From positions 35,895 through 99,894 of IMG/VR virus record IMGVR_UViG_3300031521_000016: DNA of 64,000 bases; one strand, 5' to 3'. Origin of the DNA: a virus. Lineage: Duplodnaviria; Heunggongvirae; Uroviricota; Caudoviricetes. The notes under the pieces were generated by a model. That model did not search any database, was not told the origin of the DNA, and was given only the letters and a program-made list of their open reading frames with translations. The position numbers were made by a program, and so were the translations under genes. Within the stretch, counting starts at the first letter, position 1. Every line of letters begins with the position of its first letter. Shown here one piece after another: positions 13,402 to 57,727 of the stretch.

Positions 13402-14084
13402 TTGTACTTAGTTAGTTTTTCGTCCAGAATTTTTACACCTTCTGTTGCAGTTTGTTGAATAAAGATTCTGTTTCTTTCTCTTACAGGTTCATTGTTCGGA
13501 TCAATAATATAGATTGGAATATCGTCGTATACCAAATCCACTAATCCAGCTGCTGGATATACTTGTAATGATGTTCCAATGACTACTACGATATCTGCTC
13601 GTTCGATAAGTTCGGCTGCTTCGTCCATATTCGGTACACTTTCACCGAACCAAACAATATGTGGTCTTAATGCTGATCCATCGGCTGCTATAGAGCTAGT
13701 TTCGATTTTGAAATCGGCTGGCCAATCTACTATCTTTTTATCACCACATGATTTCATTTTAGTTAACTCACCATGTAAATGTAATACTTTCGTAGAACCG
13801 GCTCTTTCATGTAAATCGTCCACATTTTGTGTTATGATTTGTACATCAAATTCTTTTTCAAGATCTGCCAGATATTTATGGGCAGCATTAGGTTCGACAG
13901 TAGATAATTGTGCTCTTCGTTTATTATAGAATTCTAACATTTGAGCTCGATTCTTTTGCCAGCCAGTTACAGTAGCAACATCTGAAATGTTATATTCTTC
14001 CCATAGACCGTCAGAATCTCGAAAAGTTTTTATTCCACTTTCGGCGCTTATACCAGCACCAGTAAATACGATAAGTTTTTTCAT
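13398..14084 (-). CDS. Sir2-family NAD-dependent deacylase (sirtuin)
   Basis: GAGISAESGIKTFRD, QNVDDLHERAG and HGEL match the sirtuin Rossmann/NAD-binding motifs. Confidence 0.8.
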   Translation of the reverse strand: MKKLIVFTGAGISAESGIKTFRDSDGLWEEYNISDVATVTGWQKNRAQMLEFYNKRRAQLSTVEPNAAHKYLADLEKEFDVQIITQNVDDLHERAGSTKVLHLHGELTKMKSCGDKKIVDWPADFKIETSSIAADGSALRPHIVWFGESVPNMDEAAELIERADIVVVIGTSLQVYPAAGLVDLVYDDIPIYIIDPNNEPVRERNRIFIQQTATEGVKILDEKLTKYK

Positions 14085-14886: not shown

Positions 14887-15266
14887 AAAAATATTGTTGT
14901 TTGTATTAATTCATTTAAGTCATGTTTATCTTCTATGACATCTACTTTTTTAGTTTGCTCAAGAACATCGACAACTTCTTGTTCACTGATTACTTCATGA
15001 TACTCACCACTAAACGGTATAGATTCATCTAAAACATATTCATATTCATTTTTTAGATGTTTGAATAATGGTACTCTTTTATGTGTAGTTTCACAGTATG
15101 GACATTCATCATCTATTAATGAGATAATGAGAGAGTCTTTTTTGTAGTAAATCTTCATTTGAACATTACGAATATCGGCTAATAATTCCTTTTCGTGTAA
15201 TTCAAATCCTATACATGTCAATAATAAGCTAGTAACTTTATCGTCAAGATTAAGATTCAGGATCAT
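14883..15266 (-). CDS. hypothetical protein
   Basis: Track ORF. Confidence 0.45.
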   Translation of the reverse strand: MILNLNLDDKVTSLLLTCIGFELHEKELLADIRNVQMKIYYKKDSLIISLIDDECPYCETTHKRVPLFKHLKNEYEYVLDESIPFSGEYHEVISEQEVVDVLEQTKKVDVIEDKHDLNELIQTTIFL

Positions 15267-15795
15267 ATTCGATAAAGGGCTCTGAGTTTGTTATTATCTG
15301 TTTGTATCTATTAAATTCGCACATGGTCAAGTGTATGTTTTCACCACCTCCATAGTTCATACTGTGAACATAGTGTGCTGGAATATCGAGATCATGTTTT
15401 ACACAAAAATCTCTTAACCATTCTGCACATGCTTTACCAGTCTTTTCGACAAATTCTCCATCTGGATCTGCTCCATAATGTTCAAAACTTAAATCGTGGT
15501 CAAAAGAAATCAGCCAAAGAAACTTTTTCTGTTCGAAGAGTTCTGTTATCTTTTGTACAAATTCTGTATACGATCTTACTATTACCCAGTCTGTTTCAGA
15601 ATAGATAACTTTATTCATCGGCATATGCGGCATGTGATAATACATACACTCTCTAGGATGCCGCATATCGTCCAGAAACAATTTATATACTAAGATATCT
15701 CTTTCCATAATAGTTGTAAAGTTTCTTTTTCTGATTCCCAAACTTCTCGAGGTAATCCTGCTCTTGTTCCCTTTTCGAATATTACGCCTGGACAT
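15250..15795 (-). CDS. hypothetical protein
   Basis: Track ORF. Confidence 0.45.
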   Translation of the reverse strand: MSRRNIRKGNKSRITSRSLGIRKRNFTTIMERDILVYKLFLDDMRHPRECMYYHMPHMPMNKVIYSETDWVIVRSYTEFVQKITELFEQKKFLWLISFDHDLSFEHYGADPDGEFVEKTGKACAEWLRDFCVKHDLDIPAHYVHSMNYGGGENIHLTMCEFNRYKQIITNSEPFIEYDPES

Positions 15796-20103: not shown

Positions 20104-20940
20104 TTATTGCAAGTATACTGTCAATATATCGTCGAAGAACTCTTTGTTCTGTGTAAAGATCGGCGTTTCAACAGCTTCCCATTTATTTCGTCTTGCTCCA
20201 TTCTTTAGATACTCAACCTTTTTAATGATTGCTCCTCGCTTCCTGCGGTAATCATACTCATTCCAATTGATACCTTTTTCAAAGATCATATCTTGCATTA
20301 CATCTGTTTTCTTACCGTGTAGTTCTTTTGGGCTGTATAAGCTTTGAGCTACAGAAGAAATAGAATTGCGAGTGGCATCTTGCTGTCTCCAAATGAAATA
20401 ATTTATAACTTCCTGTCTAGCTGGAATAGTGAATACTCTAGCATCAAATTCAGCTAATTTTTTGAAGCATCCCATGATGTCATCATGTGTCTGAAAAACA
20501 AGATTTTCAAATTTTGACAGAGCACGTTTGATTCGCAATTCATTAAACTTATTAGTTGCCATAGAAGCTGATACACTTACAATCTTTTGGATATTATTAT
20601 CGTACCATGCATCGGTTGTTACATCATCGAAATCAGTAATTAATACTGAGATTTCATCAGATTGGACGTAAGCACATTTAGCACCTTGGATATTTTTACA
20701 CAGATATGCTGCAGTAAGATTCATATCTTCAATTAATCCATCATCAAATGGACGTTGCAACCCTTTCGTGTAAGTATGAAATGCTTTTCCATCGATTCTG
20801 ATTACTGCATATGTACGTCTGGGTAGATACATTCGAGTTCTGTTCTCGTAGAACTCTTTCATCCTGTTCCCTAAATCATCTTTTTTATTTTCCACGGTCG
20901 GTGTAATATTTAATGTATAATGCTTGTTGTCTGATGCCAA
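20104..20940 (-). CDS. Thg1-like tRNA 5'-guanylyltransferase (TLP)
   Basis: FYENRTRMYLPRRTYAVIRIDGKAFHTY...RPFDDGLIEDMN...CAYVQSDEISVLITDF matches the Thg1 catalytic core (RxDG, PFD, SDEIS). The start may be the internal M27. Confidence 0.75.
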   Translation of the reverse strand: MASDNKHYTLNITPTVENKKDDLGNRMKEFYENRTRMYLPRRTYAVIRIDGKAFHTYTKGLQRPFDDGLIEDMNLTAAYLCKNIQGAKCAYVQSDEISVLITDFDDVTTDAWYDNNIQKIVSVSASMATNKFNELRIKRALSKFENLVFQTHDDIMGCFKKLAEFDARVFTIPARQEVINYFIWRQQDATRNSISSVAQSLYSPKELHGKKTDVMQDMIFEKGINWNEYDYRRKRGAIIKKVEYLKNGARRNKWEAVETPIFTQNKEFFDDILTVYLQ

Positions 20941-22006: not shown

Positions 22007-23263
22007 TTAGTTGCTAATTTCTATAATATAGCGGATAGTAGCTTGCGATATATCGTAAATGATGTATTCATTGTTTCGTAAGTCTGCTCCACCCTCAGCG
22101 AATACAGAATCGAAACCATCAGCTGCAAGATTCTTTTTATTTAGCCCGTAATTAGAACGTGTTACATGTTTCTGATTTCCTACGTGAAAGTCAAATAATG
22201 CCAAGAAAGCAGTAGCAGCAGAACCTCTCGCCCAGTATGAACCGGATAATGATGTATAGCCGATAGACTTTTGTGCTTTATCAGCTCCATAGATACCGTC
22301 TCCGAACATAGAACCAGAATATACTGCTCCAGATGGTCTAATCAAAAGCCCTGTCTGTAAAATGTTAAGCCAGTTTTCATTTCTAGAACCATGCCAGAAT
22401 GTTTGTATCTTTTTATTTTTAGCTGAATCTACTTGTTTAATGAAGCGTTCTTCTGTTTGTATATTTTTTACACCGAATGCTCTAACGAATTGTTTAGCAT
22501 TTGGCCCCATAAGCGATTTGATTTTTTGAACTTCTGCATCTGTAATTTCTACCATTTCAAGACCAAGCATCTTTAATGTATCAACTTTTTCATCTGCATC
22601 ATCTTCTTCTCCACCATTTTCTGCAAGTTTTTGTTTCTTCAACATTTCAACTTGTCCTGCCATAGTATCTAAAAGTTTTTGTTCTTTGTCCATCATGTCG
22701 AACAGAGTTTTGTTTTTTGTATCTTTTAGATCGAAGTCTTTGGGTAAAAGATGATAACTTACATGCTTCATCTTTCTAGGTATAATCGAATACAGCTCTA
22801 AGAATAAGTTGTTGATATCATTAACCGTAAGAGTGGATAATCCGGCAGATATCGTATTAATGATGCCTTGTGCTGCATCAACTTGTTGTTGTGTAACGTC
22901 AGATTGAGAAATCGTGTAGTTTTCTTCTACCGTCTTTTTAGCAAAAGCTTGTAGTCTGTCGAAGAATAACTTAATCTTAGCATTAGCAATCTGAGTAATC
23001 GTTTTCTTCTTGCCGGTTTTAACATCAGTAGCAGTGGCTCCAATAGATTCGATGAATAGTGTGGTTACATCTTTATAACCTTTTTTCGTTTTCGCTCGAT
23101 ATGTCTTTTCCCATTCTCTAATCGGATAAGTTTTTTCAGCTGGTTTACCTCCTTGTACTCTACCATATACGACTGTGAATGTTCCATTTTCATTATCAGT
23201 CATATGATAAAATTTGTTGTTATTTTCACTGGTCACCATGACCAATTTTACTACTTTCCCCAT
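22007..23263 (-). CDS. PARP-like ADP-ribosyltransferase with N-terminal WGR domain
   Basis: WGR-like N-terminus (NNKFYHM...VVYGRVQGG...KGYKDV). Catalytic domain FWHGSRNENWLNILQTGL...GDGIYGADKAQKSIGY...NNEYIIYDISQATIRYIIE aligns with the PARP1 H-G-S / Y-Y / E triad. Confidence 0.8.
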   Translation of the reverse strand: MGKVVKLVMVTSENNNKFYHMTDNENGTFTVVYGRVQGGKPAEKTYPIREWEKTYRAKTKKGYKDVTTLFIESIGATATDVKTGKKKTITQIANAKIKLFFDRLQAFAKKTVEENYTISQSDVTQQQVDAAQGIINTISAGLSTLTVNDINNLFLELYSIIPRKMKHVSYHLLPKDFDLKDTKNKTLFDMMDKEQKLLDTMAGQVEMLKKQKLAENGGEEDDADEKVDTLKMLGLEMVEITDAEVQKIKSLMGPNAKQFVRAFGVKNIQTEERFIKQVDSAKNKKIQTFWHGSRNENWLNILQTGLLIRPSGAVYSGSMFGDGIYGADKAQKSIGYTSLSGSYWARGSAATAFLALFDFHVGNQKHVTRSNYGLNKKNLAADGFDSVFAEGGADLRNNEYIIYDISQATIRYIIEISN

Positions 23264-30025: not shown

Positions 30026-30958
30026 TTAAAATACTAGGGATGACTTTGTTTCCCATCTGAAATACAATTTTGCATTTTCTCTAAGAACCAGATACTTGTA
30101 CGTATCTTTTATTTCAGATGCCATGCAATCATCATCTACACATATAGACATTTCATCTATGTCATATAGATTTGCACCAAATGGTAAAATAGTCAATAAT
30201 CTGTATGAAGTTTTCACATACTCTACGATAGCATTATAGAAATGCTTACTCGCATTCTCATCTATCCATTTATCGATTTCTGAGTTCGATTCAGATTTAT
30301 AGAGTTTTCTGAATGTTACTTGATCAGCTCCTAGAAATTTACATCTGTCGATTATCGCTTTTGGACTATAGTTATCGAAGTCATTAACTAAATTTATAGA
30401 TAATCTGATATTGAAATCTAACTCTTTTGCAAGGGCAATTTTATCGAATACATTAAATTCAGTACTTTTGGCACATCCTATTAATTCTAAATTGCGTAAA
30501 TTATCAACTATGTTTGAAATTGAAAATGAAATAGTAGTAACTCCAATACGACGTAAATGCGTCAAATTTGATTTATCCAGTAATACACCGGTAGTTTGTA
30601 GTTCGATGCTTTTAAATGGTGAAGTCAATCTTGAATTGATCTCAGAGAAGAAATCTAAGAATTGTGGATTTTGAATAGGTTCACCTGTACCAGTTAATAC
30701 TACTGTGTTACAGCCGTTATCTCTAGCAAATTGCAATCGATTAAAATAATCTTTGTAATACTGAGAGTCTTTAGAAATTATTTTATCTAATGCATGTCTT
30801 CTGGCTAAAGATGTGTTAAACTCTTTAAAATTCGGTTTAATCAACGCAGATATAACGTCATTGTATGGATTAGTATGAGTTCTACTAACACAAAATTTAC
30901 AGTGATTTATACATTTGTTCTTCGTCGGAACAACGATACTAAGACTTTGGATATTCAT
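30026..30958 (-). CDS. radical SAM enzyme
   Basis: CINHCKFC (CX3CX2C) at residues 16-23 and a downstream GTGEP SAM-binding motif. Confidence 0.7.
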   Translation of the reverse strand: MNIQSLSIVVPTKNKCINHCKFCVSRTHTNPYNDVISALIKPNFKEFNTSLARRHALDKIISKDSQYYKDYFNRLQFARDNGCNTVVLTGTGEPIQNPQFLDFFSEINSRLTSPFKSIELQTTGVLLDKSNLTHLRRIGVTTISFSISNIVDNLRNLELIGCAKSTEFNVFDKIALAKELDFNIRLSINLVNDFDNYSPKAIIDRCKFLGADQVTFRKLYKSESNSEIDKWIDENASKHFYNAIVEYVKTSYRLLTILPFGANLYDIDEMSICVDDDCMASEIKDTYKYLVLRENAKLYFRWETKSSLVF

Positions 30959-31060: not shown

Positions 31061-32923
31061 TTATTCTTTAACGTCTGGTTTAGTCAATGGTTTTGTCGTT
31101 TCATCAGAGTTACGGACCATCTTTAAAACTTCCATACCTAATATACCATTTAATGCTCCATTTCCTCCTTCACCATTACCCGAAACAAGGACTTCAGGAA
31201 TAATTTTCACGTTGTTTATACCGATTTGTTCGATCACCTTAAACTTGGCGAAATTATCTTGACCCATAGAATCAACTTGCAATTTGTAAGATTCAGCAGT
31301 AGCTCTACCAATTGCTTCGATCTTGGTAGCTTCAGCCTTACCGGTAAGTTCAATTTGTGTTGCTTCAGCATCTGCATTAACCTTTTTAGCTTCAGCTTGA
31401 GCTCCAGCTTTAAGTTTAATTGCTTTTGCTTCACCTTCAGCTCTTTTTACTTCAGATTCTGCATTTCGTTGTGAAATTTCAACTTGTTGTTGAGCATTTA
31501 CAACTTCTCTTTGCATGTCTGCGATAGCTTCAGCAGATGCTAAAGTTTTTCTCATATCTTGAGCTTTTCTTTGTGTTTCAAATGTAACCTCTTGTTCCTG
31601 AGCAATTTTACGGTCAGTAAGAGTTTTCATAAGTTCGATAGGTGGAACAATATCACCGATTAGTGTATCAACGGCATGTACATTATATTCTTCTAATACT
31701 GCTGAGATTTTAGCTTTTGCGTCACCTTGTTTCTCTTGACGGTGGCCTAAGAATTCGATAACATCTGCATCTTGAGCAGAATTTCGGAAATAGTTACCGA
31801 TTGTTGGTTCAAGAACCTGTGATACCATGTTTTGCATAGATCCGAATCGGGCAATAACTTTAGGAGCTTCAGTAGATGGAACGTGAATGATCTGAGATAC
31901 ATCAAGGTTGAATGGGAAACCATCTTTTGAACGAACAGTAATAGTATTCAGATTCTTATCCAAGTTATGTGATTCTGTTCTTGCATTTGCCCAATTTAAT
32001 ACAAGATTTGTAGTAGGCACAACTTCAATCTTATGTGTATAAGGATTAATCGGATACTTACCTGGATTCAAAGTTTCAATCCATACACCCTTTTCACCTT
32101 TTTTCACGATGTTACCATGTTTGAAGTTTGCTCCGGTTACATCTTCACCTTCTTTTCCAACAAATGATATAACTACTCCAGCAGTACCAATTCCGATTTC
32201 AGTCATCGGTTTCTTTTCAATTTCCACTGCCCATGGGTTAAGTGAATATGTACCAGCCTGAATAACTTGCTCTTGCATACCTCTTTCTCCGCCATTTGCT
32301 AAGAATGTTTCAAAATCTTGGAAGTTATTATGACCATCGATAGTTGGACCAGCAATATTACCAGCACCTAATTGTACACCATCTAATGCAGTAACAATAC
32401 CTATCATTCCATCTTCTATAGATACAATATCAGTTTGGAATACATCGAACAATAAAGTATTAAGTCTGTATACACCAGTATTAAGATACCCAAGTTGTCT
32501 ACCACGTTTACCGCCATTGTTCAAGAATAGTCTGGCATTTTGAAAATTGTCAGAGTCTACACTACGAGCAAGCATAGTACCATCCGGTAATTTCTGTCCA
32601 TCTTTTGCGGAAATGATTCCTAATCTACCCTTTGGAATAACAGTAAGTGGTTCTTGCTTAATTTCATATTGCCAAATCCACTTAAACCAGTACAAACCTG
32701 GTGCTAATGTATCAGCTTGATAACCTGCTTCACCGTTTAATGCGATAATTTTACCGTCGGGTAACGATTTTTCTTTTCCGAATAGCACGAATTTTTTGAT
32801 GACAAGACCAATCTTATCTTCAGGAATAATAATCATCCCAAAGAATACTCTTAAGATGAACTTGTAAAATACAAGGGCTAGTACAACTACTGGCACCCAC
32901 CAATACGCTAATAATGCAATCAT
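31061..32923 (-). CDS. flotillin-like SPFH/band-7 protein
   Basis: N-terminal TM, SPFH-like core, and a C-terminal A/E/K-rich coiled-coil flotillin tail (AEAKKVNADAEATQIELTGKAEATKIEAIGRATAESY). Confidence 0.6.
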   Translation of the reverse strand: MIALLAYWWVPVVVLALVFYKFILRVFFGMIIIPEDKIGLVIKKFVLFGKEKSLPDGKIIALNGEAGYQADTLAPGLYWFKWIWQYEIKQEPLTVIPKGRLGIISAKDGQKLPDGTMLARSVDSDNFQNARLFLNNGGKRGRQLGYLNTGVYRLNTLLFDVFQTDIVSIEDGMIGIVTALDGVQLGAGNIAGPTIDGHNNFQDFETFLANGGERGMQEQVIQAGTYSLNPWAVEIEKKPMTEIGIGTAGVVISFVGKEGEDVTGANFKHGNIVKKGEKGVWIETLNPGKYPINPYTHKIEVVPTTNLVLNWANARTESHNLDKNLNTITVRSKDGFPFNLDVSQIIHVPSTEAPKVIARFGSMQNMVSQVLEPTIGNYFRNSAQDADVIEFLGHRQEKQGDAKAKISAVLEEYNVHAVDTLIGDIVPPIELMKTLTDRKIAQEQEVTFETQRKAQDMRKTLASAEAIADMQREVVNAQQQVEISQRNAESEVKRAEGEAKAIKLKAGAQAEAKKVNADAEATQIELTGKAEATKIEAIGRATAESYKLQVDSMGQDNFAKFKVIEQIGINNVKIIPEVLVSGNGEGGNGALNGILGMEVLKMVRNSDETTKPLTKPDVKE

Positions 32924-34545: not shown

Positions 34546-35031
34546 TTAAATTTTGACAGTGTTAATAGTTACAATTAATTCGGCAATCTTATCATCCAAT
34601 CTTTTCTTATTGTCTTCAATAGTACTTATAACAGCTCTACATTGCATTCTGTAATGTTCCAGACATTCATCTGCATTATCGAAACATGCAACGAACGGTG
34701 TCGGTTTAAATGAATTTCCACTTCTACCCCAAGCGTATAGTTGTTCGTTATATTCATAAATCTGCACAATAGATTTGCATCGTACACCCTTTTTAGTTAA
34801 TTTCACGAGAGCATTCTCTGAACCATAAAGTTGTTTAACAGAAGGTGATTCAGATTTTGGTACGAGTATACATTTTGTAGGAACAGTATGTCTATATGCT
34901 CCATTACTACATAGATCAAAATCAAAATGTAAATAATTGCATACAAAAATTTCTTTCCCTAAATAAGGTGAATTTTTTTGAGCTAGAATTTCTGAATCAA
35001 GTTTCATATTAATGTGAATGTGAGGTTTCAA
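34546..35031 (-). CDS. hypothetical protein
   Basis: Track ORF. Confidence 0.45.
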   Translation of the reverse strand: MKPHIHINMKLDSEILAQKNSPYLGKEIFVCNYLHFDFDLCSNGAYRHTVPTKCILVPKSESPSVKQLYGSENALVKLTKKGVRCKSIVQIYEYNEQLYAWGRSGNSFKPTPFVACFDNADECLEHYRMQCRAVISTIEDNKKRLDDKIAELIVTINTVKI

Positions 35032-35917
35032 TGTATATCATTTCTGCATTACTATATGCTGCGGTAATATCAGCTTTCATTTCAGAAATAATAGATTCTA
35101 CTTTATATACATGAATATCATCTTCTAAATCAAGTGACATAGCAAGAATAAATTTGTTATTGCCATTGTATTCAGATCGCATGTTATTTATATGCTTAAC
35201 ATCTGGATACGATTTAATGATCTGTTTTATATGCATTCTCATTTCCCTTGATATGCTTTCACCAATCATTAATTTTCTAAATTCGTTACTCAAAAAATAT
35301 GAGGATGATAATAAAAGTAATCCAACAGTGATCGATCCAATTGCATCAAATACGGGAGATATGCATATAGCTAATGTAGTAGAAAGTAGTACAATAACTA
35401 ATCCTGTAAGGGCAGCAAAATCTTCAATTATGATAACGAATATATTAGCATCAGTTGAATTTTTAAGATGATTTAGCCAACTAACTTTTCTATGCTTATC
35501 CATTTTGAATCGTTTGAATGCAACATAGAATGAATTTGCCTCAATGATGATCGATATAATTAGAACGATAAAAATCCACATCATATTTGAAAGGCCCTCT
35601 GGTTCTATTATCTTATGAATGCCTTCATATACTGAATATAAACCACCAACAAAGAATAGTAAAACTCCTACTAACAGTCCATAAAAATATTCCTCTTTGC
35701 CATAACCAAATGCATGTTGTTCATCAGGTTCTTTTTTAGAACGTTTAGAGCCCACGATTAAAAGAATTTGGTTTGCAGTGTCAGCAAAAGAGTGAATAGA
35801 TTCAGCGAACATTCCAGCACTTCCAGTAATGAATGATACTATCAACTTAATTGCACTTATTATGAGATTTCCTACTCCTGCTACAATTACTGCCTTTAAA
35901 CTTCCTTCTGTACTCAT
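35009..35917 (-). CDS. cation diffusion facilitator (CDF) family metal efflux transporter
   Basis: Six predicted TM helices, the CDF signature SIHSFADTANQ in TM2, and a C-terminal cytoplasmic domain. Confidence 0.75.
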   Translation of the reverse strand: MSTEGSLKAVIVAGVGNLIISAIKLIVSFITGSAGMFAESIHSFADTANQILLIVGSKRSKKEPDEQHAFGYGKEEYFYGLLVGVLLFFVGGLYSVYEGIHKIIEPEGLSNMMWIFIVLIISIIIEANSFYVAFKRFKMDKHRKVSWLNHLKNSTDANIFVIIIEDFAALTGLVIVLLSTTLAICISPVFDAIGSITVGLLLLSSSYFLSNEFRKLMIGESISREMRMHIKQIIKSYPDVKHINNMRSEYNGNNKFILAMSLDLEDDIHVYKVESIISEMKADITAAYSNAEMIYIETSHSH

Positions 35918-36420
35918 TCAGCCTCCATTATTCGTTCAAGATATTCCCATGCTTTTAATACGTCGATCGGATGTTCTGTGCATTGAATAGCATTTCTGAA
36001 TTCTGCATATTCATTTTTGTACATTAAGAACTTATCTTTGTTGTATTCTTTACTTTGAATAGTATTTGCAATTCTATCACATATTTTGACAGCTGTTGCT
36101 TTCCAGTTTCCACGAATTTTAGGATAAGTCTTGGCATGTTTTTCTGTCCGGTTTCTTCCTAATTCATCAGTTACACAGAATACTATTTCTGCGATATTTT
36201 TACCGAATGCTTTCTTAATATCATTGAACGATAAATGAGTATCTTCCAATACATCATGTAAAATACATCCAATAACAATTTCTTCATCAAATCCCAAAAT
36301 CTCAGCGATTTCAGCTACACGCTTTACATGATATGCATATGGGTAGATATCGTAAGTCTGGCCTTTATGAACCAACTCAGCTACCATCAAAGCTCTATCC
36401 TTTTTTGTTATCGTTATCAT
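35914..36420 (-). CDS. HD-domain small alarmone hydrolase (SpoT/Mesh1-like (p)ppGpp hydrolase)
   Basis: H...HDVLEDT...FG..IAEIVFCVTDE matches the RelA/SpoT HD hydrolase motifs; 168 aa, single domain. Confidence 0.7.
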   Translation of the reverse strand: MITITKKDRALMVAELVHKGQTYDIYPYAYHVKRVAEIAEILGFDEEIVIGCILHDVLEDTHLSFNDIKKAFGKNIAEIVFCVTDELGRNRTEKHAKTYPKIRGNWKATAVKICDRIANTIQSKEYNKDKFLMYKNEYAEFRNAIQCTEHPIDVLKAWEYLERIMEAE

Positions 36421-36577
36421 TTATTTTTAATTTTGTTTCTTTTTCTATTCTTTTACGTTCTTTCTTGCCAGCTTTATATGCATCATATAGAATCGATGGC
36501 CGTCTAACGTACTTTGGACAGGTTTTACCTTCAAGACCACGTTTAAATACTACTCCTTGAATCTGTAAATATGGCAT
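36395..36577 (-). CDS. hypothetical small basic protein
   Basis: 60-aa track ORF overlapping the HD gene's start region. Confidence 0.3.
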   Translation of the reverse strand: MPYLQIQGVVFKRGLEGKTCPKYVRRPSILYDAYKAGKKERKRIEKETKLKINDNDNKKG

Positions 36578-36579
36578 AA

Positions 36580-36888
36580 TTATTCAATTTTCCTTATGAT
36601 TTTTCCACTTTCAAGTGGTTCTACCGCCCCATCAGTGGATTGTGTAGTACTGGCAATTTTTACAAGTGTTATTGTCGTGACGTAATGATTATCTTGAAGT
36701 TTTTCTGCGAATACTTTAGCAGTACACTTTAAACGTACTTCTTTTGCATTAGACATCCATAAAGTTATATACGGTTCTTGTTTTTCATCTGCATTTTGTT
36801 GAATGAGACATATTTTGTCTGCTGGTATAATTACAGGATTGCCGTACCAGTCATTAACTACGATAAAATTTTGTTCTACACTACTCAT
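36580..36888 (-). CDS. hypothetical protein
   Basis: Track ORF. Confidence 0.45.
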   Translation of the reverse strand: MSSVEQNFIVVNDWYGNPVIIPADKICLIQQNADEKQEPYITLWMSNAKEVRLKCTAKVFAEKLQDNHYVTTITLVKIASTTQSTDGAVEPLESGKIIRKIE

Positions 36889-37129
36889 TGTTTTTTCTTT
36901 TCAATTCTTTATTTCGCAGAAACTCTTCATCTGAAATGAAATTCAACATGAAAGTTTGCGGAATACGTAATGTAACCTCAGTTCTGGTCATACTTGGAGC
37001 TTTGAACTCCTGAATTGTAGAAGTTATACCCATCCAAATAACTGGAATAGATAAAACAATTTGTACGATCAAAATAATCGAGGTTCGACGAGTTGAACGA
37101 TAATCTAAGAAATCGCTTTTCTTTCTCAT
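36881..37129 (-). CDS. small membrane protein
   Basis: One TM helix. Confidence 0.4.
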   Translation of the reverse strand: MRKKSDFLDYRSTRRTSIILIVQIVLSIPVIWMGITSTIQEFKAPSMTRTEVTLRIPQTFMLNFISDEEFLRNKELKRKNNE

Positions 37130-37130
37130 T

Positions 37131-37895
37131 TTATTTTTTATTTGTTGGTTCTAACCAAGTTCCATCTCTAAATATTAGATCAAGAAAGCCCGGAATATAT
37201 GTTGATTCTACTAAATTCAACAGTTTTAAAGTTTTGACTGTATCATGTTTCATCATCTTCTTAACTTCTTCTCTTATACGTTCATTACTCACAGTCTTTC
37301 CAAGTTTTTCGAGGATAGCAGGTTGCTTCATAGCTTCCCAAATATCTACGTGGATATCGAAGTTTTTTGTGATAGAAAAACGCATAGCTCGCAAGATACG
37401 TAATGGATCGTCCATCATAGTAATCTTTGGATCGATAGGGGTAATCAAAATACGATTACTTAATGCAAGCTTGCCATTGAATAAGTCGATAATTTTGCCC
37501 TCTTCATCTTCTGCCATTGCATTGACAGTAAAATCTCTTCGTTCTAAGTCATCAGCTAAAGTACCCAGTGCTAAGATAGGAGTTCTTGTATCGGGTATGT
37601 AACCGAGCTCTTTTCGTGCTAATACAAAATCAGCAACTAATCCGTCATAAATATGACCATGTGGAAATTTAGCGCGAATAGTAAACATTTCTGGAGTAGA
37701 AAGAAAGATACTATATTTGCGTTCTTTCATCCATTCATACATGACGTTGAAACCTTCAGTGACAGTTAATTCACTGCATAAGCCAGGAACTATACGTTCT
37801 TGTTCATTTAGTACAAAAGTGAAATCGACATCTTTGTTTTCGATACCTAATAGAGCATCTCTTACTACTCCTCCTACTTTATAAATTTTTGGCAT
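37131..37895 (-). CDS. class-II tRNA nucleotidyltransferase head/neck domain (minimal CCA- or A-adding enzyme / poly(A) polymerase family)
   Basis: GGVVRDALLG...DVDF, ERRDFTVNAMA and DDPLRILRAMRF are the canonical PolyA_pol head-domain motifs; only 254 aa. Confidence 0.8.
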   Translation of the reverse strand: MPKIYKVGGVVRDALLGIENKDVDFTFVLNEQERIVPGLCSELTVTEGFNVMYEWMKERKYSIFLSTPEMFTIRAKFPHGHIYDGLVADFVLARKELGYIPDTRTPILALGTLADDLERRDFTVNAMAEDEEGKIIDLFNGKLALSNRILITPIDPKITMMDDPLRILRAMRFSITKNFDIHVDIWEAMKQPAILEKLGKTVSNERIREEVKKMMKHDTVKTLKLLNLVESTYIPGFLDLIFRDGTWLEPTNKK

Positions 37896-40489: not shown

Positions 40490-40927
40490 TTACACTAATT
40501 TTGAAAAATCTTTTAGCTCATTTCTAACTTTCATCAGGATTTTACCAAGCATATTTTTACCTACACCTTCGCATACTCCCCAATATTTATCTCCCCACCA
40601 ATTACCTTCAATAAGCATTGCATCACCGGTAGCAATTAATTTCTTTGTAAGTTCGGCACTTTGTGAAAATTTAGCCATTACGACTTCTTCCATAATGCTA
40701 TCTTTAACTAAATCCCAATCGGAACGTAGATTTACAGATCTGCCAAGTTTTTTACTCTCGCTTGGATTAAGCGATACGAATGATTCTCTAGCAACTGAAT
40801 CATTCGTTTTCATAGAATGAAATGCGCCTTCTGAGTTGGCATACGTTCTTCCGTCATAAGTAACTGGTGATTCCCAGAAGTTACTGAGGAATGCGTATTC
40901 CCCTTTGAAAAAGTCAATAGTTTTCAT
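40490..40927 (-). CDS. NADAR (YbiA-like) ADP-ribosyl hydrolase domain protein
   Basis: FLSNFW, E at SEGAFHSMK, MEEVVMAKFSQ...LTKKLIATGDAMLIEGNWWGDKYWG and NMLGKILMKVR match the NADAR signature. Confidence 0.75.
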   Translation of the reverse strand: MKTIDFFKGEYAFLSNFWESPVTYDGRTYANSEGAFHSMKTNDSVARESFVSLNPSESKKLGRSVNLRSDWDLVKDSIMEEVVMAKFSQSAELTKKLIATGDAMLIEGNWWGDKYWGVCEGVGKNMLGKILMKVRNELKDFSKLV

Positions 40928-41926: not shown

Positions 41927-42385
41927 CTATTTACAGATCTTGTCTGCACAATATGTAGCAGCAAAACCGTCAGGTTTAAAACGAGGTTTATATCCCATTG
42001 ATTCAATATATCCTAAAGATGCACGTAATACTGCATTGGATTTATATTTCGGATCAGGATTAAAGTCAATATCGATAAACTCAGGTTTTTGAATTCCAGA
42101 ATTTCTCAAGTACTCAGAAATTTCAATTGAGATTTCTACTTCTTTCCACAATCTTGAAAATGAATCATATACACGTTTTGTCAATTCCTTTGAATAAAGA
42201 ACGTGAGCACCGTGATTTCCGTAATGTAGAACAATTACTACTGCATATAATGTAGAAGCTCCTCTGCTCTGCGAATCTGTACCTACGTAGATTTTTATAT
42301 CTTCGTGGTCAATAAATTGCTGTTGCAAGTATGGTATTAAGTCGACTTCTTTTTTTGTAGTCAAACTTTTAAATTTTCTTTCCAT
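41927..42385 (-). CDS. hypothetical protein
   Basis: Track ORF adjacent to the nucleotidyltransferase gene. Confidence 0.45.
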   Translation of the reverse strand: MERKFKSLTTKKEVDLIPYLQQQFIDHEDIKIYVGTDSQSRGASTLYAVVIVLHYGNHGAHVLYSKELTKRVYDSFSRLWKEVEISIEISEYLRNSGIQKPEFIDIDFNPDPKYKSNAVLRASLGYIESMGYKPRFKPDGFAATYCADKICK

Positions 42386-42394
42386 AATGAATTA

Positions 42395-43588
42395 TTATCT
42401 TGATGCACTAGGCCTGGGAATCCTTCCCTTTTCTACTTCAGGTCTATTACTTATTCTACTTTTTTTGACATGCCTAATTTGATCATTACAATTTTTCCAT
42501 CTCATGGATATGAGTAAATTGTTGATATAGTCACGATCTGGAGATTCTTGCATGTCGGATTTGTCAAATGCTTCATTTACTTGTTTCATCAAGTCTTCAG
42601 CTTCATTAACTAAATCTTCATATTCATATTCTCCTTTTCTGATAGCTAACAATTTATCTCTATTTGTGCGTCTTACATTTATTCCTTTGCCTTGCGCAAT
42701 CTCTAATGACATTTCAAGCAAACGTAAAGTATGTGCTAAATTTTTACCGTCATATCCTTTTCCGTGCAACATGTTATCATTGAAACGGTGAACATTCCTT
42801 TTGGCAACCCATTCCCAGTATTCTTTATATTCTTTGCAGTATACAGAATAACCTTCCATGTTAAATTGCATTAAGAAATCTGGTTTTATACCACTTGGAA
42901 TATTACTAAGACTTACATCCATCGCAGTTTCTTCGTCTGAAACAATACCTCTATAGTAATCAGATATGAGAATGCCTTGTTCTCTAGCAAGAAATTGATT
43001 ACGATTATAGTATACACCGTATGTGTTTTTCATATGAGGTAGTGCAACTAATCCACAACAATCTTGTACCATGTCGTTCATTCGTAAGTACTCTTTAACG
43101 TTAATAGAGCCTTGCTTCCATTGAACGAAACAGAATTCTAAAATGCTTTTGCGTTTTTCATCGAACTGTTTAACAATCTTTTTGTTCAATCCTCTAGCTT
43201 TCTTTATTTGTTGAGTAGCATACCCACCAAATGAATTTTTACAGAGCTTAGAGATAAATTTATCTCTATTTTCGAGGATCATATCGAATATTGGTGCTTT
43301 ATAAATTACACAATCTTCAGGTGTATTCAAAAGCTCTATGATATTAGGATTGTTAGTGTATATTAATTCCAAAAATTTTCCTAATTCGTAGAATGTGATA
43401 TCGTTCATTTCATCAGATACTTGATCGTCATATTCTAATCCAAGAATTTTATCGATAGGTTGCATGAATACACCACGTATGTCTGTATCAGAAGTTTCTG
43501 TTGCAGTACCATATGCGTGTGAACCAGCGATAACTTCATAAATTATCAGTCCATTATCTCGTAAATCTTGTAAAGTTAATTTCTTCAT
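42395..43588 (-). CDS. Pol-beta-superfamily nucleotidyltransferase (RlaP/PF10127-like; CD-NTase/OAS-like not excluded)
   Basis: GSHAYGTATETSDTDIRGV is the G[S]-x9-DxD nucleotidyltransferase motif followed by RGV, as in RNA-repair-associated predicted nucleotidyltransferases; 397 aa. Confidence 0.6.
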   Translation of the reverse strand: MKKLTLQDLRDNGLIIYEVIAGSHAYGTATETSDTDIRGVFMQPIDKILGLEYDDQVSDEMNDITFYELGKFLELIYTNNPNIIELLNTPEDCVIYKAPIFDMILENRDKFISKLCKNSFGGYATQQIKKARGLNKKIVKQFDEKRKSILEFCFVQWKQGSINVKEYLRMNDMVQDCCGLVALPHMKNTYGVYYNRNQFLAREQGILISDYYRGIVSDEETAMDVSLSNIPSGIKPDFLMQFNMEGYSVYCKEYKEYWEWVAKRNVHRFNDNMLHGKGYDGKNLAHTLRLLEMSLEIAQGKGINVRRTNRDKLLAIRKGEYEYEDLVNEAEDLMKQVNEAFDKSDMQESPDRDYINNLLISMRWKNCNDQIRHVKKSRISNRPEVEKGRIPRPSASR

Positions 43589-50137: not shown

Positions 50138-50634
50138 TAGAATCCAAATTTAGTTGATATTTTTCGTTTACGTAAAAGCTTTAGTTCATTCTCATCAGAT
50201 AGTGTGCTCAATAAAGATTCACGTGTTATAGGATATACAAGTTTTCTTATATTCTTAACTATTAATGATTTCTGTAAAGCTAAAGCTAAATTCTCATATT
50301 TTGTGGGCAGCGCCGGTAATTGTATAGTTTCCCAGTTGCCAGATTTAGCAGTAATGTTCTTGGTTTCAATATCTATTTCTAACCCATAATCTTCATTTGA
50401 TGATAAAATCGATATAGCACATGTATTATCTACATTGCCGTAAAAAATCATTTTATCAAAAGTTTGTAGAATATCTATTGCACACGCAGTCAGACGTGAA
50501 ATGAATATATCGTCACAATCAATGAAACTTTCATCCCATAATACACTATGTGCAATATTATGGGATGAAGGCGTTTTGTTCACATCTCTGTAAATGACAA
50601 TACGTTGCATGTTTTTAGAGAATCCTAGAACCAT
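50137..50634 (-). CDS. hypothetical protein with C-terminal KFGF tail
   Basis: Ends ...RKRKISTKFGF; immediately downstream of the Nudix gene. Confidence 0.5.
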   Translation of the reverse strand: MVLGFSKNMQRIVIYRDVNKTPSSHNIAHSVLWDESFIDCDDIFISRLTACAIDILQTFDKMIFYGNVDNTCAISILSSNEDYGLEIDIETKNITAKSGNWETIQLPALPTKYENLALALQKSLIVKNIRKLVYPITRESLLSTLSDENELKLLRKRKISTKFGF

Positions 50635-51176
50635 GAAGGAAACAAGATCTGTAAAATTTGTTTAACTTTGTATCTGAATGGATGTTTCACCTTTTCATTG
50701 TAGATATTGTTTATGCGAGAATAATGATTGAATGCCCAATCGTAATTATGCAGACATTTGACATTTATCCATCTTAAATCTTCAACTTCATTTTCTTCAG
50801 AGCCAAGGCGGTTCAGATGAGGCAAAGGTTGAGTATAATCAAACTTTAAGACTAAGTAGTATCTAAATGTGATATTCTGCTCATTGTATGCATCTTCATT
50901 CCAAGAATCGAATTTGAGCATTTCTGGATCGATTCTGATCCCGGTTTCTTCGAATAATTCTCTTACACAACCCTGGCGAGAAGTTTCATCGTAATCTAAA
51001 TAGCCACAAGGTGCATTCCAATAGCCTTGAAAATTCGGTGTTCCGCTTCCACGTTTATTTGCTAAAATGTAAGTTTCACCATCTTTTTTTGCAAAAATGA
51101 AACCTGTTACAGCAGTGGCTCTGCTAATCCAATAAGTTTTACCTTCATGTTCAACTGGAAAATTTTTTCTACTCAT
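50625..51176 (-). CDS. Nudix hydrolase
   Basis: Nudix box GYLDYDETSRQGCVRELFEETGI (Gx5Ex7REuxEExGu). Confidence 0.75.
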   Translation of the reverse strand: MSRKNFPVEHEGKTYWISRATAVTGFIFAKKDGETYILANKRGSGTPNFQGYWNAPCGYLDYDETSRQGCVRELFEETGIRIDPEMLKFDSWNEDAYNEQNITFRYYLVLKFDYTQPLPHLNRLGSEENEVEDLRWINVKCLHNYDWAFNHYSRINNIYNEKVKHPFRYKVKQILQILFPSWF

Positions 51177-53495: not shown

Positions 53496-53984
53496 TCATT
53501 TGACATGTTTCAATACAGCGAATAATGTAGAGTATGTACCAATTTTATCGTCATATCCACCCTTAAATAAGCTATAATTTCTTATCTTTACACCATTTTT
53601 ACTTATGCCGATTCTGTACAAATATTTGTCGCGATTCTTATGTTCATCATACCACAAATTATCTTCTTCGTCGTACCTAAATCCATTATCGTATAGTGAT
53701 TGAACGATATCGATAACCGGCACGTAACCAGTGTAACGCTTAATAGTTTTATAGTCAAATCTTAGACCTCCAAAATACATTGTATAGTATCTATCATGAT
53801 CACCGTTGGATGTTAAAAGATCGAATATTACTTCACCAATATGTGATATTGCAGCTAATTCTTTTTCTACTTCTAAGATATAGTCAGAAATAGTAAAATA
53901 ATCTAACGCATACACCATATACGGGTATGTACTATTTATTGTAACTTCTATTTTATATAAGAGTCTGGTCGGAATTGATTCCAT
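53496..53984 (-). CDS. hypothetical protein
   Basis: Track ORF. Confidence 0.5.
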   Translation of the reverse strand: MESIPTRLLYKIEVTINSTYPYMVYALDYFTISDYILEVEKELAAISHIGEVIFDLLTSNGDHDRYYTMYFGGLRFDYKTIKRYTGYVPVIDIVQSLYDNGFRYDEEDNLWYDEHKNRDKYLYRIGISKNGVKIRNYSLFKGGYDDKIGTYSTLFAVLKHVK

Positions 53985-55246: not shown

Positions 55247-56964
55247 TAGATTGCAGGTTTTGTTTCTTCAGCAGCAGGTTCAGGAGTACTTTCTGGTTCA
55301 GGAGTAGTTGCTGGTTCAGGAGTAGATGATGATCCAGAACCTGAGCTATCACTAGATGGTTCAGATGATGATGAACTTCCTCCAGCTGGAGCTGATGGAG
55401 CAGTATAACTTAGTCCTCCTGCGGACGCAGTATTTTCACCACCATTTTCTTCTTCATCTTCTTTAATCATACGTTCATTCATAGCTAATACGTCCTTATC
55501 CATGTGTAAATATTGTTGAACTAAGAATCTCATAGAGAAGAATGGTTTGCCTTCTGCCTTTTGAAGCTGTGACATAGAACCGATAAATTCTAGACGCTTA
55601 GTCATAATCTCTTGTTCTCTGATTTCTTCGAACATGTTATCTTTAACGAAACGCAATCCTAATGATGACTTAAACAGCTCATCATCTTCAAGATGATTAT
55701 ATTTAAGACACATTTGAATCCAGAGTGGTTTCAACAATATTTCTTGGAATGCTGAACGAATTCTGCTTACAAATTTACCGAAACGTACTTCTTCACGGTC
55801 TACACCAGTAGCAGCCGAACCAGACATTTGTCCACCAGAATTGGCTTTATCGAAACGAGCAAAAGGAATTTTTGAATCTTCTTTAAGCTTATTCATCCAA
55901 TACATCAATAGTGTACTATTTTGTAAGTCTGGACCATCACCACCCATAGTGGATATATCTATTTGTTCACCGTTCTTAGAAGGGAATAAGTAATTCTTGT
56001 AGAATTGACCTACAGAAGGTGATCCGTTGATTCTTAATTGGCCATCGTTAGAATCCAAGATTATGTCTTCTTTATAGATCGCCATTAATTCAGCTAAGGT
56101 TTCTTTTGCTTTCTGAGGAGATTTCGATCCAATTGGAACAATCATTTTTACTCTCCAAGTAGCATTCATCATAGTCCACATAACCATTGCATTCTCGATC
56201 ATTCTTAGAAGATTGAAAGAACGTACCAGATTTTCAACGTATGATATTCTTGAAGGTAAATTGCCTTTAGCATAAGAGATGTATACAACTTGTGTATCAT
56301 ATAGCATTCTTGTCATAGCAGGTCTATCAGGGTAAAGGTACCATACCTTTTTCATTATTCCGTTTTCCTGTAAGACATCAGGCTTCAGAAATGCGGCATC
56401 TAATTCTTTAAACCCTAGTACATTTTCACCTTTTGCATCAAATACAATTTCAAATGCTAGTACTCCATCTACTAAAAATTGACGGAAATATTGCCAACCT
56501 GTGATATCAGCTCCAAATCCATGTCTATTATAGATTCGTTTATATTCATCACTTATGGCATCTCTTATTTCCTCACTTATATCTAAGTTTGCCACAGAAG
56601 GATAAGCAAAATAGTTAGTTTCATCATATACAATACCTTCATCAGCAAGTGTGGTCATCATGAAATCGATTTCACCATTTAAAGCAAATTTTCTCAGATA
56701 ATCTCTTCGTGATGGGTAATCTTTATCGAAAATAGCTGTGTACTTTTTCTGTGAAACATCAGCTAATGCAAATGCATAAGCTAAATCTTTTGGAGCATAT
56801 TCTCCCAGTGTAGCTTCAGTAGGTCCGATAGCTCTTGAATTTCGTATGACTAGATCATCATACTTCATCCCTAAACTAGATATCTTTCGGATACCATCAC
56901 CTACACTGACAAGTGATTTAACTCCAAAACGATCAAAAAATCCGCTTTCAAATAATTTAGACAT
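55246..56964 (-). CDS. portal protein (T4 gp20-like)
   Basis: FGKFVSRIRSAFQEILLKPLWIQMCLK, ENAMVMWTMMNATWRVKMIVPIG and the following helical segment align with T4 gp20 ([50 protein letters not shown]). C-terminal S/P/E-rich tail. Confidence 0.65.
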   Translation of the reverse strand: MSKLFESGFFDRFGVKSLVSVGDGIRKISSLGMKYDDLVIRNSRAIGPTEATLGEYAPKDLAYAFALADVSQKKYTAIFDKDYPSRRDYLRKFALNGEIDFMMTTLADEGIVYDETNYFAYPSVANLDISEEIRDAISDEYKRIYNRHGFGADITGWQYFRQFLVDGVLAFEIVFDAKGENVLGFKELDAAFLKPDVLQENGIMKKVWYLYPDRPAMTRMLYDTQVVYISYAKGNLPSRISYVENLVRSFNLLRMIENAMVMWTMMNATWRVKMIVPIGSKSPQKAKETLAELMAIYKEDIILDSNDGQLRINGSPSVGQFYKNYLFPSKNGEQIDISTMGGDGPDLQNSTLLMYWMNKLKEDSKIPFARFDKANSGGQMSGSAATGVDREEVRFGKFVSRIRSAFQEILLKPLWIQMCLKYNHLEDDELFKSSLGLRFVKDNMFEEIREQEIMTKRLEFIGSMSQLQKAEGKPFFSMRFLVQQYLHMDKDVLAMNERMIKEDEEENGGENTASAGGLSYTAPSAPAGGSSSSSEPSSDSSGSGSSSTPEPATTPEPESTPEPAAEETKPAI

Positions 56965-57727
56965 TATTAGTATTTATTTTTCTCCCTGGATACAATATCA
57001 TCTCTTGTATTTTTATTTTGTATGAAAATGGTGTAAGAAAATAAGTGTTCATACCATCATTATACCAACGCTTAGATATAGCTGCATTTGACATATTTGA
57101 TATTGCTATATTTGAATATAGGTTAGATTTTAATGTAGGTTTAATTCTTTTCTTATATGGTTTACTTTTCTTCAGAATGGGATTTTTATACTTCCATATA
57201 AATCCCATAGAATATTCTCGTTCTCCTCTGCAGCAATCTGTTACATGTCCGATACCTAATGTTCTCTGTATTTCTTTAGCTGAAGGCCATTCTTTTATAA
57301 AAACTCCATCTAGATCATATTGCAATACAACCTTACTTCTATTAGAATTTAGATTGTTTATTAATCTTTCACGATGAATATATGAATAAGCTTCTCTTGC
57401 TTCAGCATATCCTTTGCTAGAATATTTAGATGGTCGTTGTTTAAAGTTTTTTCCTGTGAATAGACTTGTGAATGCATTAAATGCATAAGCTGATGCTCTA
57501 TTTCTATATATTCTCCATAGTAACCAATGTGCAATAAAATGTTCTCTAGCTGTCAAAAATACTAGATTTGTATCTTCATCGCCACCTCCCATAGATTTCA
57601 TAATAATATGATGACGTTCATAATATACACCATATTCTTTTACTCTATCTCTACGAGTTTCTATCAAGCTATGATAATGCCAAATATAATTCATTTTATA
57701 TATCGTCCTCGTCAAAGAATAAGTCAT
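56957..57727 (-). CDS. HNH homing endonuclease
   Basis: ERHHIIMKSMGGGDEDTNLVFLTAREHFIAH HNH motif. Confidence 0.7.
   Translation of the reverse strand: MTYSLTRTIYKMNYIWHYHSLIETRRDRVKEYGVYYERHHIIMKSMGGGDEDTNLVFLTAREHFIAHWLLWRIYRNRASAYAFNAFTSLFTGKNFKQRPSKYSSKGYAEAREAYSYIHRERLINNLNSNRSKVVLQYDLDGVFIKEWPSAKEIQRTLGIGHVTDCCRGEREYSMGFIWKYKNPILKKSKPYKKRIKPTLKSNLYSNIAISNMSNAAISKRWYNDGMNTYFLTPFSYKIKIQEMILYPGRKINTNNV

Follow-up and report, generated by a model that had tools for sequence, protein, structure and literature searches.

The 64,000-nucleotide stretch of viral DNA analysed here (Caudoviricetes; positions 35,895 to 99,894 of IMG/VR record IMGVR_UViG_3300031521_000016), which is called the window throughout, codes for a stand-alone hydrolase of the RelA/SpoT homologue (RSH) family, a small alarmone hydrolase (SAH). 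The gene is located at 35914..36420 on the minus strand. Its product is a single-domain protein with the all-helical HD fold of the RSH hydrolases. We predict that this protein is an active, metal-dependent SAH which clears the products of enzymes with the RSH synthetase fold, and that it would thereby relieve the arrest imposed by toxic small alarmone synthetases (toxSAS) or by the stringent response. We assign a probability of about 55% to this reading.

The open reading frame (ORF) has an ATG start codon and a TGA stop codon and codes for 168 residues. The window has a G+C content of 33%, and its minus strand carries, densely packed, almost all of the long ORFs. A chance ORF of 168 codons is unlikely in DNA this rich in A+T, and the homology evidence settles that the gene is real. 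An earlier annotation of this DNA, made from the letters and their reading frames (the original prediction), had placed a SpoT-type hydrolase with an HDVLEDT motif in exactly this ORF. The coordinates proved correct, and the motif is read from the sequence as residues 55-61.

The RelA/SpoT type named by the original prediction is corroborated by sequence, profiles, predicted fold and catalytic residues, which all agree. The protein matches Pfam HD_4, the RelA/SpoT-type HD family (E 3e-10; 40.5 bits, with a gathering cut-off of 27.2), and PHROG 990 (phrog_990, "metal-dependent phosphohydrolase"; E 5.5e-33). Its match to NCBIfam spoT_relA (E 5e-16) is limited to the N-terminal 120 of 687 model positions. 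These correspond to the hydrolase-domain region, so that only the hydrolase part is represented. By sequence, the PDB entries matched best are those for Lmo0812, Drosophila Mesh1, Rel hydrolase domains and the SAH of P. aeruginosa (PaSAH); Aph1 is matched weakly. With a family profile built from 20 relatives, 23 PDB chains were found at E<=1e-3 (best 2e-17). They are RSH hydrolases by name, the identification being based on names and descriptions; 7p1y and 7qps/7qpr were not looked into further.

An AlphaFold2 model, computed from the alignment of the 20 relatives, has nine helices and covers all 168 residues (predicted local distance difference test 93.4; predicted template modelling score 0.90). 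The best 50 Foldseek matches of this model in the PDB are all RSH hydrolases, with template modelling (TM) scores of 0.53-0.79 when normalised to the query. They include PaSAH, Mesh1, MESH1 (up to 0.79), Rel from T. thermophilus (TtRel), Lmo0812, RelH and SpoT. Neither Pfam nor the fold model revealed a synthetase, TGS/ACT or regulatory domain in the protein. One domain spans its entire length, as had been proposed, and the relatives have 160-210 residues.

The general Pfam HD family PF01966 also matches (E 8e-6), and many database records label the relatives merely as "metal-dependent phosphohydrolase". On these grounds, the protein might be regarded as a generic or decayed HD phosphohydrolase (e.g. 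a dNTPase or a nucleotidase) with no link to alarmones. We consider this extremely improbable. All identifiable significant matches by sequence, profile and fold are specifically to RSH hydrolases. The Glu-Asp (ED) dyad, which is missing from generic HD enzymes, is invariant in the SAH family, and a mean column identity of 63% over 20 phage and bacterial sequences argues against decay.

The catalytic residues were assigned by a HMMER alignment to B. subtilis Rel, for which the RelSeq numbering is shared. Their conservation was evaluated in three sets: the 20-member family alignment, an 8-way alignment (which includes Rel, Lmo0812, Mesh1 and the SAHs from phages SSU5 and PVP-SE1) and the 150 best cluster representatives from a library of 1.84 billion proteins. 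The metal ligands of Rel (H53, H77, D78 and D144) correspond to H31, H55, D56 and D115, the catalytic dyad (E81-D82) to E59-D60, T83 to T61, and the ribose-contacting Asn (N148) to N119. The first metal-ligand histidine, H31, is encoded at 36328..36330. The HDVLEDT motif (H55, D56, E59, D60 and T61; 36238..36258) contributes two metal ligands and the dyad, and D115-R-I-A-N119 (36064..36078), which aligns to "ADRLHN" of Rel, contributes the fourth metal ligand and the Asn; all three features are on the minus strand. H31, H55, D56, E59, D60, T61, D115 and N119 are invariant in the 20-member and in the 8-way alignment. Across the 150 representatives, catalytic residues are kept in 146-149 cases: H31 in 146, the residues of HDVLEDT in 148-149 (E59 in 149 and D60 in 148), D115 in 149 and N119 in 147. 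Because these residues are invariant or nearly invariant across the relatives, we regard the active site as intact and under selection.

The window protein differs from Rel in the loop that binds guanine. In TtRel, the guanine is stacked by R43, R44 and M157 and is hydrogen-bonded by S45, N150 and T153 (PMC10083569). According to HMMER and MAFFT alignments, R43, R44, S45, T153 and M157 of TtRel correspond to Y23, D24, a deletion, Q122 and Y126. In RelSeq numbering, R44 corresponds to Y23, K45 to D24, T151 to Q122 and L155/M157 to Y126, while S46 is deleted. The basic guanine pocket of the Rel type (an Arg-Arg/Lys-Ser loop together with T151 and M157/L155) is not found in the window protein in these alignments. 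Its loop is shortened and non-basic and reads Q21-T-Y-D-I-Y-P-Y28 (36337..36360, minus strand). The corresponding loops are Q-Y-R-K-S-G-E-P-Y in B. subtilis Rel, Q-V-R-K-I-T-G-E-P-Y in Lmo0812, Q-K-D-K-G-G-N-P-Y in the SAH from PVP-SE1 and Q-K-R-K-Y-T-G-E-D-Y in that from SSU5. Within the close family (20-member alignment), there is no variation at Y23, D24, I25, Y26, P27, Y28 or Y126. In the wider clade, Y23 is kept in 141 of the 150 representatives, and the position after it holds Gly or Asp, with a basic residue in none of them (0/150). The residue equivalences within the loop are provisional because they come from sequence alignments and the loop lengths differ.

As the Arg-Lys-Ser loop is replaced by a shorter Tyr-Asp loop, (p)ppGpp becomes less secure as the preferred substrate. 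Together with pGpp, it would be the least secure of the candidates, and (p)ppApp or 3'-pyrophosphorylated tRNA would be as likely. Judged from the alignments, a broad or adenine-leaning specificity is expected rather than that of a dedicated (p)ppGpp hydrolase. The (p)ppApp-specific hydrolase Aph1 has D24-K25-A26 at the first three guanine-contact positions, and the double change D24R + R119A confers activity on ppGpp (PMC10083569). The paper on Pakpunavirus, in which a phage SAH is annotated, states that the substrate preference is not predictable. The assignment to the RSH family is left untouched by the change in the loop.

Mechanistically, the enzyme would attack the 3'-pyrophosphate ester of a purine nucleotide by means of its Glu-Asp dyad, in a metal-dependent reaction (Mn2+ by homology). 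The substrates would be products of enzymes with the RSH synthetase fold: (p)ppApp, perhaps also (p)ppGpp, and possibly tRNA with a 3'-pyrophosphate on its CCA end. Their cleavage during infection would cancel the arrest of growth or translation caused by toxic alarmone synthetases (of the CapRel, FaRel, PhRel or Apk type) or by the stringent response. The phage would benefit by escaping abortive infection of the toxSAS type or the shutdown brought about by the stringent response.

The roles put forward in the original prediction (keeping the host out of the stringent response or countering alarmone-based defences) agree with published experiments on other phage SAHs. The phage SAHs PbcSpo (from PVP-SE1) and PaSpo (from SSU5) neutralise all toxSAS they were tested against, including CapRel, PhRel, PhRel2, FaRel and FaRel2 (Jimmy et al. 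2020; PMC7229694), and CapRel is a phage-defence system (PMC9712102). Several toxSAS pyrophosphorylate tRNA at its CCA end, and the SAHs MESH1 and ATfaRel restore aminoacylation (Kurata 2021 preprint); according to PMC11559606, the SAH from SSU5 takes the modification off the tRNA. The genomic context is consistent with a counter-defence role, as NADAR, PARP, SIR2, cREC, NUDIX and RnlB-like genes occur in the same accessory island, and relatives of the SAH are found beside Acb2/Tad1-like genes.

Several points weigh against the predicted role. The gene context is variable, and a counter-defence function is assigned through guilt by association within accessory islands. Bacterial members of the clade are found in ordinary chromosomal contexts, which fits a housekeeping role that has been borrowed by the phage. 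The prediction of specificity from the loop is weak, since the length difference makes residue equivalence uncertain, and broadly neutralising phage SAHs also vary in this loop (Q-K-D-K in PVP-SE1 and Q-K-R-K in SSU5).

The window gene is an orphan SAH and not an antitoxin, because there is no synthetase gene alongside and a comparison of 39 loci revealed no conserved neighbour. About 60 ORFs of the window were scanned for domains, and no RelA_SpoT domain of a small alarmone synthetase was found, neither among these nor in the flanking genes. The SAH is flanked by a transporter gene and by small ORFs that have no Pfam or PHROG match where scanned. When all window proteins were compared with the related loci by tblastn, no conserved partner was found. 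All-against-all clustering of 1,361 neighbouring ORFs from the 39 loci revealed no family common to independent lineages except the SAH itself. A function as type IV antitoxin in a toxSAS toxin-antitoxin system (ATfaRel type) was rejected, as there is neither an adjacent synthetase nor a recurrent neighbour in these loci.

The gene downstream of the SAH (35009..35917, minus strand) codes for a metal exporter of the cation diffusion facilitator (CDF) family (Cation_efflux E 3.8e-37; ZT_dimer; PHROG 7308). As read from the sequence, the stop codon of the SAH and the start codon of the CDF gene overlap in an ATGA (35914..35917, minus strand), which suggests that the two genes are co-transcribed and translationally coupled. 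The presence of a metal transporter in what would be the same transcription unit is a curious pairing, given that RSH hydrolases are Mn2+-dependent. A SAH-CDF operon was rejected as a general feature, because the pairing is confined to the phage's own lineage (loci L001-L004).

A gene for a short tRNA nucleotidyltransferase of the CCA-adding type is located 0.7 kb upstream of the SAH (37131..37895, minus strand; 254 residues; PolyA_pol E 8.5e-17; PHROG 24229 E 8.9e-61). The motifs GGxVRD...DxD, RRDF and DDPLRxLRAxRF are visible in its translation. This class-II enzyme consists of head and neck only (PolyA_pol and part of the RNA-binding region) and is devoid of the tRNA-binding body and tail found in full-length CCA enzymes; the profile of PHROG 24229 has a length of 245. 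It is a possible functional partner of the SAH. Between the two genes are three small ORFs of 60, 102 and 82 residues (36395..36577, 36580..36888 and 36881..37129, all on the minus strand). The first overlaps the start of the SAH by 26 nt, and the 82-residue protein appears, from its sequence, to be membrane-anchored. The 102-residue ORF has no Pfam or PHROG match; the other two were not scanned.

Homologues of the SAH are abundant in metagenomes, with 364 found at E<=1e-5. Identical copy P0001 aside, the top 120 have 152-210 residues and share 56-70% identity with the window protein. The identical protein is encoded on 12 independent ENA metagenome contigs, with the same neighbours. Among the 1.84 billion representatives, the clade comprises 38 clusters at E<=1e-30, a number that rises to 2,131 when the threshold is E<=1e-10. 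In deposited phages (50,697 records), a homologue was found at E<=0.01 in 460 records, with a best identity of 36%. The clade is represented on contigs of large uncultured phages (51-209 kb) and on chromosomes of Bacteroidota (Arenibacter, Allomuricauda with a complete genome, Draconibacterium, a Cyclobacteriaceae contig of 2.09 Mb, and Lacinutrix). The clade is common to, and exchanged between, Bacteroidota chromosomes and their large phages. In two Bacteroidota loci, a divergent second HD_4-like gene directly follows the SAH (L005 8506..9078 and L046 6515..7459). The proteins, with 190 and 314 residues, have a faint Pfam match and E 3.7e-5 to the SAH profile, and the gene looks like a tandem paralogue.

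Some types of neighbour recur. A cREC_REC gene is found within 4 kb of a SAH relative in three bacterial lineages (L040; L005/L043; L042) and in two phage lineages (L007/L008; L014/L019/L058). The genes are at 6647..6982 in L040, 10142..10486 in L005, ~2425..2818 in L042, 12031..12486 in L007 and 10133..10534 in L058. In L040, from Arenibacter, it is directly downstream of the SAH relative. Such proximity is unlikely to arise by chance in bacterial genomes of several Mb. For cREC, Iyer et al. 2021 predict a role in the processing of cyclic phosphates, within systems that are NAD-centred or serve RNA repair (PMC7824862). A CCA-type enzyme is encoded near the SAH in three independent places: the window (0.7 kb), phage L061 (1.5 kb) and Arenibacter L040 (2.5 kb). 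The enzymes from L061 and L040 are full-length, and in L040 an insertion sequence transposase separates the two genes. A conserved operon of a SAH and a short CCA enzyme was rejected as a general feature, since proximity is restricted to these three places. Other neighbours of SAH relatives are Tpt1, SIR2, NUDIX, NAMPT and Thg1 in L006, ADP-ribosylglycohydrolase and Acb2/Tad1-like genes in L007 and L059, and, each in a single lineage, a 2H phosphoesterase (L058), PNKP (L060) and SIR2 (L061). These neighbours represent the counter-defence and RNA-repair repertoire of large phages. As evidence for a functional module, the pattern is only suggestive, because genes of these kinds cluster in islands anyway.

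The source of the window is a T4-like phage, as it contains genes for a T4-like portal (Portal_T4, E 1e-62) and for a gp15-like tail-sheath stabiliser. The phage origin assumed in the original prediction is therefore confirmed. The host is probably a member of the Bacteroidota, which is inferred from the chromosomal relatives in this phylum and from the G+C content of 33%. A megablast search with 5 kb found no related deposited phage at the DNA level, and no tRNA genes were found in the 64-kb window. The SAH resides in a long accessory region of the phage genome, in which a PfkB kinase, a non-specific endonuclease, NT5C, OmpA-like, SLT and hemerythrin proteins and a helicase are also encoded. 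Genes that relate to conflicts over NAD and ADP-ribose code for SIR2 (13398..14084; E 7e-45), cREC_REC (15250..15795; E 3.5e-15), a protein with a PARP catalytic domain (22007..23263; E 6e-22), NADAR (40490..40927; E 1e-27) and NUDIX (50625..51176; E 4.5e-15). Genes of the RNA-repair type are scattered around the SAH: a Thg1-like 3'-5' polymerase (20104..20940; E 2.6e-28), an RNaseH_like/DUF458 protein (41927..42385) and an RlaP nucleotidyltransferase (42395..43588; E 5.5e-23). An RNA ligase was not detected in any of the window ORFs that were scanned. An RnlB_antitoxin-domain protein (53496..53984; E 1e-11) may help the phage to counteract RNase toxins of the RnlA/LsoA type, with a role like that of T4 Dmd.

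Further genes code for a DUF2201 metallopeptidase/VWA protein (7715..9340), an adjoining MoxR-like AAA ATPase (9355..10920) and a ClpP-like protease (11171..11827). Downstream of the SAH-CDF pair are a radical SAM protein (30026..30958) and a 620-residue SPFH/Band-7 protein (31061..32923). A NUMOD1-containing protein, likely a homing endonuclease, is encoded at 56957..57727 and overlaps the end of the portal gene. Nearby is a gene for a protein with a TnsA-like endonuclease N-terminal domain (58369..58878). Both are of the mobile-element type and are inserted among structural genes. All accessory and mobile-element type genes listed with coordinates are on the minus strand.

The window protein might instead be a dedicated (p)ppGpp hydrolase that keeps the infected cell out of the stringent response and plays no role against toxins. 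Enzymes that hydrolyse (p)ppGpp (Rel from B. subtilis and S. aureus; Mesh1) are, alongside Lmo0812, its nearest solved relatives by sequence, and the chromosomal members from Bacteroidota resemble orphan housekeeping SAHs. Moreover, the stringent response can restrict phages and is targeted by them, as exemplified by Atd1 and by the inhibition of RelA/SpoT by the T7 portal. The loop speaks against this reading, as the guanine contacts of TtRel (R43, R44, S45, T153 and M157) are not kept and a basic residue equivalent to K45 is absent throughout the wider clade. Aph1 required an Arg at the first position in addition to R119A for activity on ppGpp (PMC10083569). We take a purely (p)ppGpp-directed enzyme seriously but consider it unlikely. 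Alternatively, the protein may serve mainly in the repair of RNA ends. It would strip damaged acceptor ends of tRNA of a 3'-pyrophosphate or a 3'-phosphate, which would allow the neighbouring CCA-adding enzyme and aminoacyl-tRNA synthetases to act, with free alarmones being side substrates. Aminoacylation of pyrophosphorylated tRNA is indeed restored by MESH1, ATfaRel and PaSpo from SSU5 (Kurata 2021 preprint; PMC11559606). In addition to the three nearby CCA-type enzymes, Thg1, RlaP, PNKP, Tpt1, 2H phosphoesterase and cREC recur near clade members. About 30 of the 39 loci, however, are devoid of such genes within 7-10 kb, and the accessory genes of large phages cluster regardless, so that proximity is weak evidence. 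An RNA-binding extension is not evident on the single domain of 168 residues, and the window is devoid of tRNA genes and, among the ORFs scanned, of an RNA ligase. We thus consider a primary function in RNA repair to be quite improbable.

Another option is that the protein acts on a non-alarmone adenosine 2'/3'-phosphate compound in an NAD-centred arms race, either by dephosphorylating NADPH in the manner of MESH1 or by breaking down an immune signal derived from NAD or ADP-ribose, alongside cREC, NADAR, SIR2 and NUDIX. Human MESH1 is the best fold match by TM score (0.79 for 5vxa, a complex with NADPH, and 0.78 for 9chy, a complex with 3'-phosphoadenosine 5'-phosphosulfate), and the Kurata 2021 preprint cites a report of NADPH phosphatase activity for MESH1. 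The cREC genes near relatives in three bacterial and two phage lineages point in the same direction, as cREC is tied to NAD-processing systems (PMC7824862), and so do the neighbouring genes for ADP-ribosylglycohydrolase, Acb2/Tad1-like proteins, NAMPT, NUDIX and SIR2. On the other hand, the complete RSH active site with its Glu-Asp dyad is the hallmark of enzymes that hydrolyse 3'-pyrophosphates, and the islands hold many unrelated counter-defence genes. MESH1 presumably retains a basic loop (R24-K25), which is absent from the window protein. An NAD-centred function is considered highly unlikely. As a tentative proposal, which we also regard as unlikely to hold, the clade with the Tyr-Asp loop may differ from ordinary alarmone hydrolases and have adenosine-3'-(pyro)phosphate ends as its special targets, either on tRNA (pyrophosphorylated A76) or in a signal derived from NAD/ADP-ribose. 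Together with cREC and CCA-adding enzymes, it would form a module for RNA-end or signal clearing that has been captured by phages. The favoured reading remains that of an active SAH which clears the products of RSH-synthetase-fold enzymes.

Phage alarmone hydrolases are among the few known enzymatic ways to erase defences that are based on nucleotide alarms or on tRNA pyrophosphorylation, and the phage examples tested so far are exclusively enterobacterial. The window gene extends this kind of enzyme to T4-like phages that probably infect Bacteroidota. The new content is modest and consists of a large uncharacterised clade with a non-basic loop, a new carrier and loose links to cREC and CCA-type enzymes. 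As matters stand, the finding is a correct annotation and not a discovery. If the loop alters specificity, this would aid in deducing substrate preference from the sequence across thousands of unannotated phage "metal-dependent phosphohydrolases". The adenosine-end module proposed above for the Tyr-Asp loop, if true, would represent a previously unrecognised system for RNA-end or signal clearing.

As a kind, phage SAHs are already known, with experimental tests from 2020 onwards and a catalogue for jumbo phages from 2021. The counter-nucleotide enzymes that Iyer et al. list for jumbo phages include an "HD-alarmone PDEase" (example BBI90576.1; PMC7824862). The concept is the same as for the window SAH, an RSH-type HD enzyme of large phages whose predicted role is to degrade alarmone signals in counter-nucleotide defence, and their entry is a catalogue prediction without biochemistry. 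By sequence comparison, the two tested representatives are only distant matches. PaSpo from SSU5 (SSU5_099, AFL47026.1) is also a stand-alone RSH hydrolase without adjacent synthetase and shares the motifs Y..H, HDV.EDT and D...N with the window SAH (BLASTP 33% identity over 86 residues, E 4e-12; hhalign probability 97.4%). However, it has 213 residues with a longer C-terminus, so that the similarity is mainly in the N-terminal half, and its loop is basic while that of the window SAH is not. SSU5 is an enterobacterial plasmid-prophage, whereas the window is from a T4-like genome of the lytic type; both code for an SPFH protein. PbcSpo from PVP-SE1 (gene 220, ADP02616.1) is stand-alone as well, has 169 residues and carries the same catalytic motifs (25% identity over 95 residues, E 3e-6; hhalign probability 95.5%). 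No SAH-like ORF other than gene 220 was found in the PVP-SE1 genome, from which we infer that this gene is the construct tested in PMC7229694. The toolkit of PVP-SE1 resembles that of the window phage (tRNA nucleotidyltransferase, Sir2-like protein, ClpP and MoxR ATPase) and also includes NAD salvage genes.

The fold is shared with the solved SAHs and RSH domains, namely Lmo0812 (4yf1), Drosophila Mesh1 (3nqw), human MESH1 (5vxa), P. aeruginosa SAH (6yvc/6z3o) and Rel from B. subtilis, S. aureus and T. thermophilus. TM scores are 0.63-0.79, with 18-27% identity in the structural alignments, and profile E-values range from 2e-17 (8acu, Rel) to 2e-7 (5vxa, MESH1). Metal ligands, ED dyad and Asn are the same, while the R44-K45-S46 loop of the solved enzymes is replaced by the shorter Y23-D24 in the window SAH.

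Aph1 (7smg), the (p)ppApp-specific hydrolase from a Bacteroides caccae prophage, is an HD-type SAH from mobile elements of the same phylum. Like the window SAH, it lacks an Arg at the first guanine-stacking position. The match is weak (phmmer E 4e-4; profile E 2.8e-5). As an immunity protein, Aph1 is encoded beside a MuF-Apk toxin gene, and it lacks two helices, whereas the window SAH is an orphan without a toxin neighbour. Its signature comprises D24, R96, D116, R119, K133 and Y134 together with a neighbouring MuF/PAAR-Apk toxin gene. D116 and R119 would correspond to I121 and K124 of the window protein, as estimated solely by offset from the conserved Asn. A C-terminal Tyr is conserved in Aph1 (Y134), and Y134 of the window protein, only tentatively its equivalent, is kept in 147 of the 150 representatives. 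A functional analogue of the window SAH is the MazG-like Atd1, a phage-encoded (p)ppGpp pyrophosphatase by which the alarmone is depleted and abortive infection of the TIR type is weakened (bioRxiv 10.1101/2022.06.09.495361). It has an unrelated fold (an all-alpha NTP pyrophosphatase of the MazG type) and uses a different chemistry.

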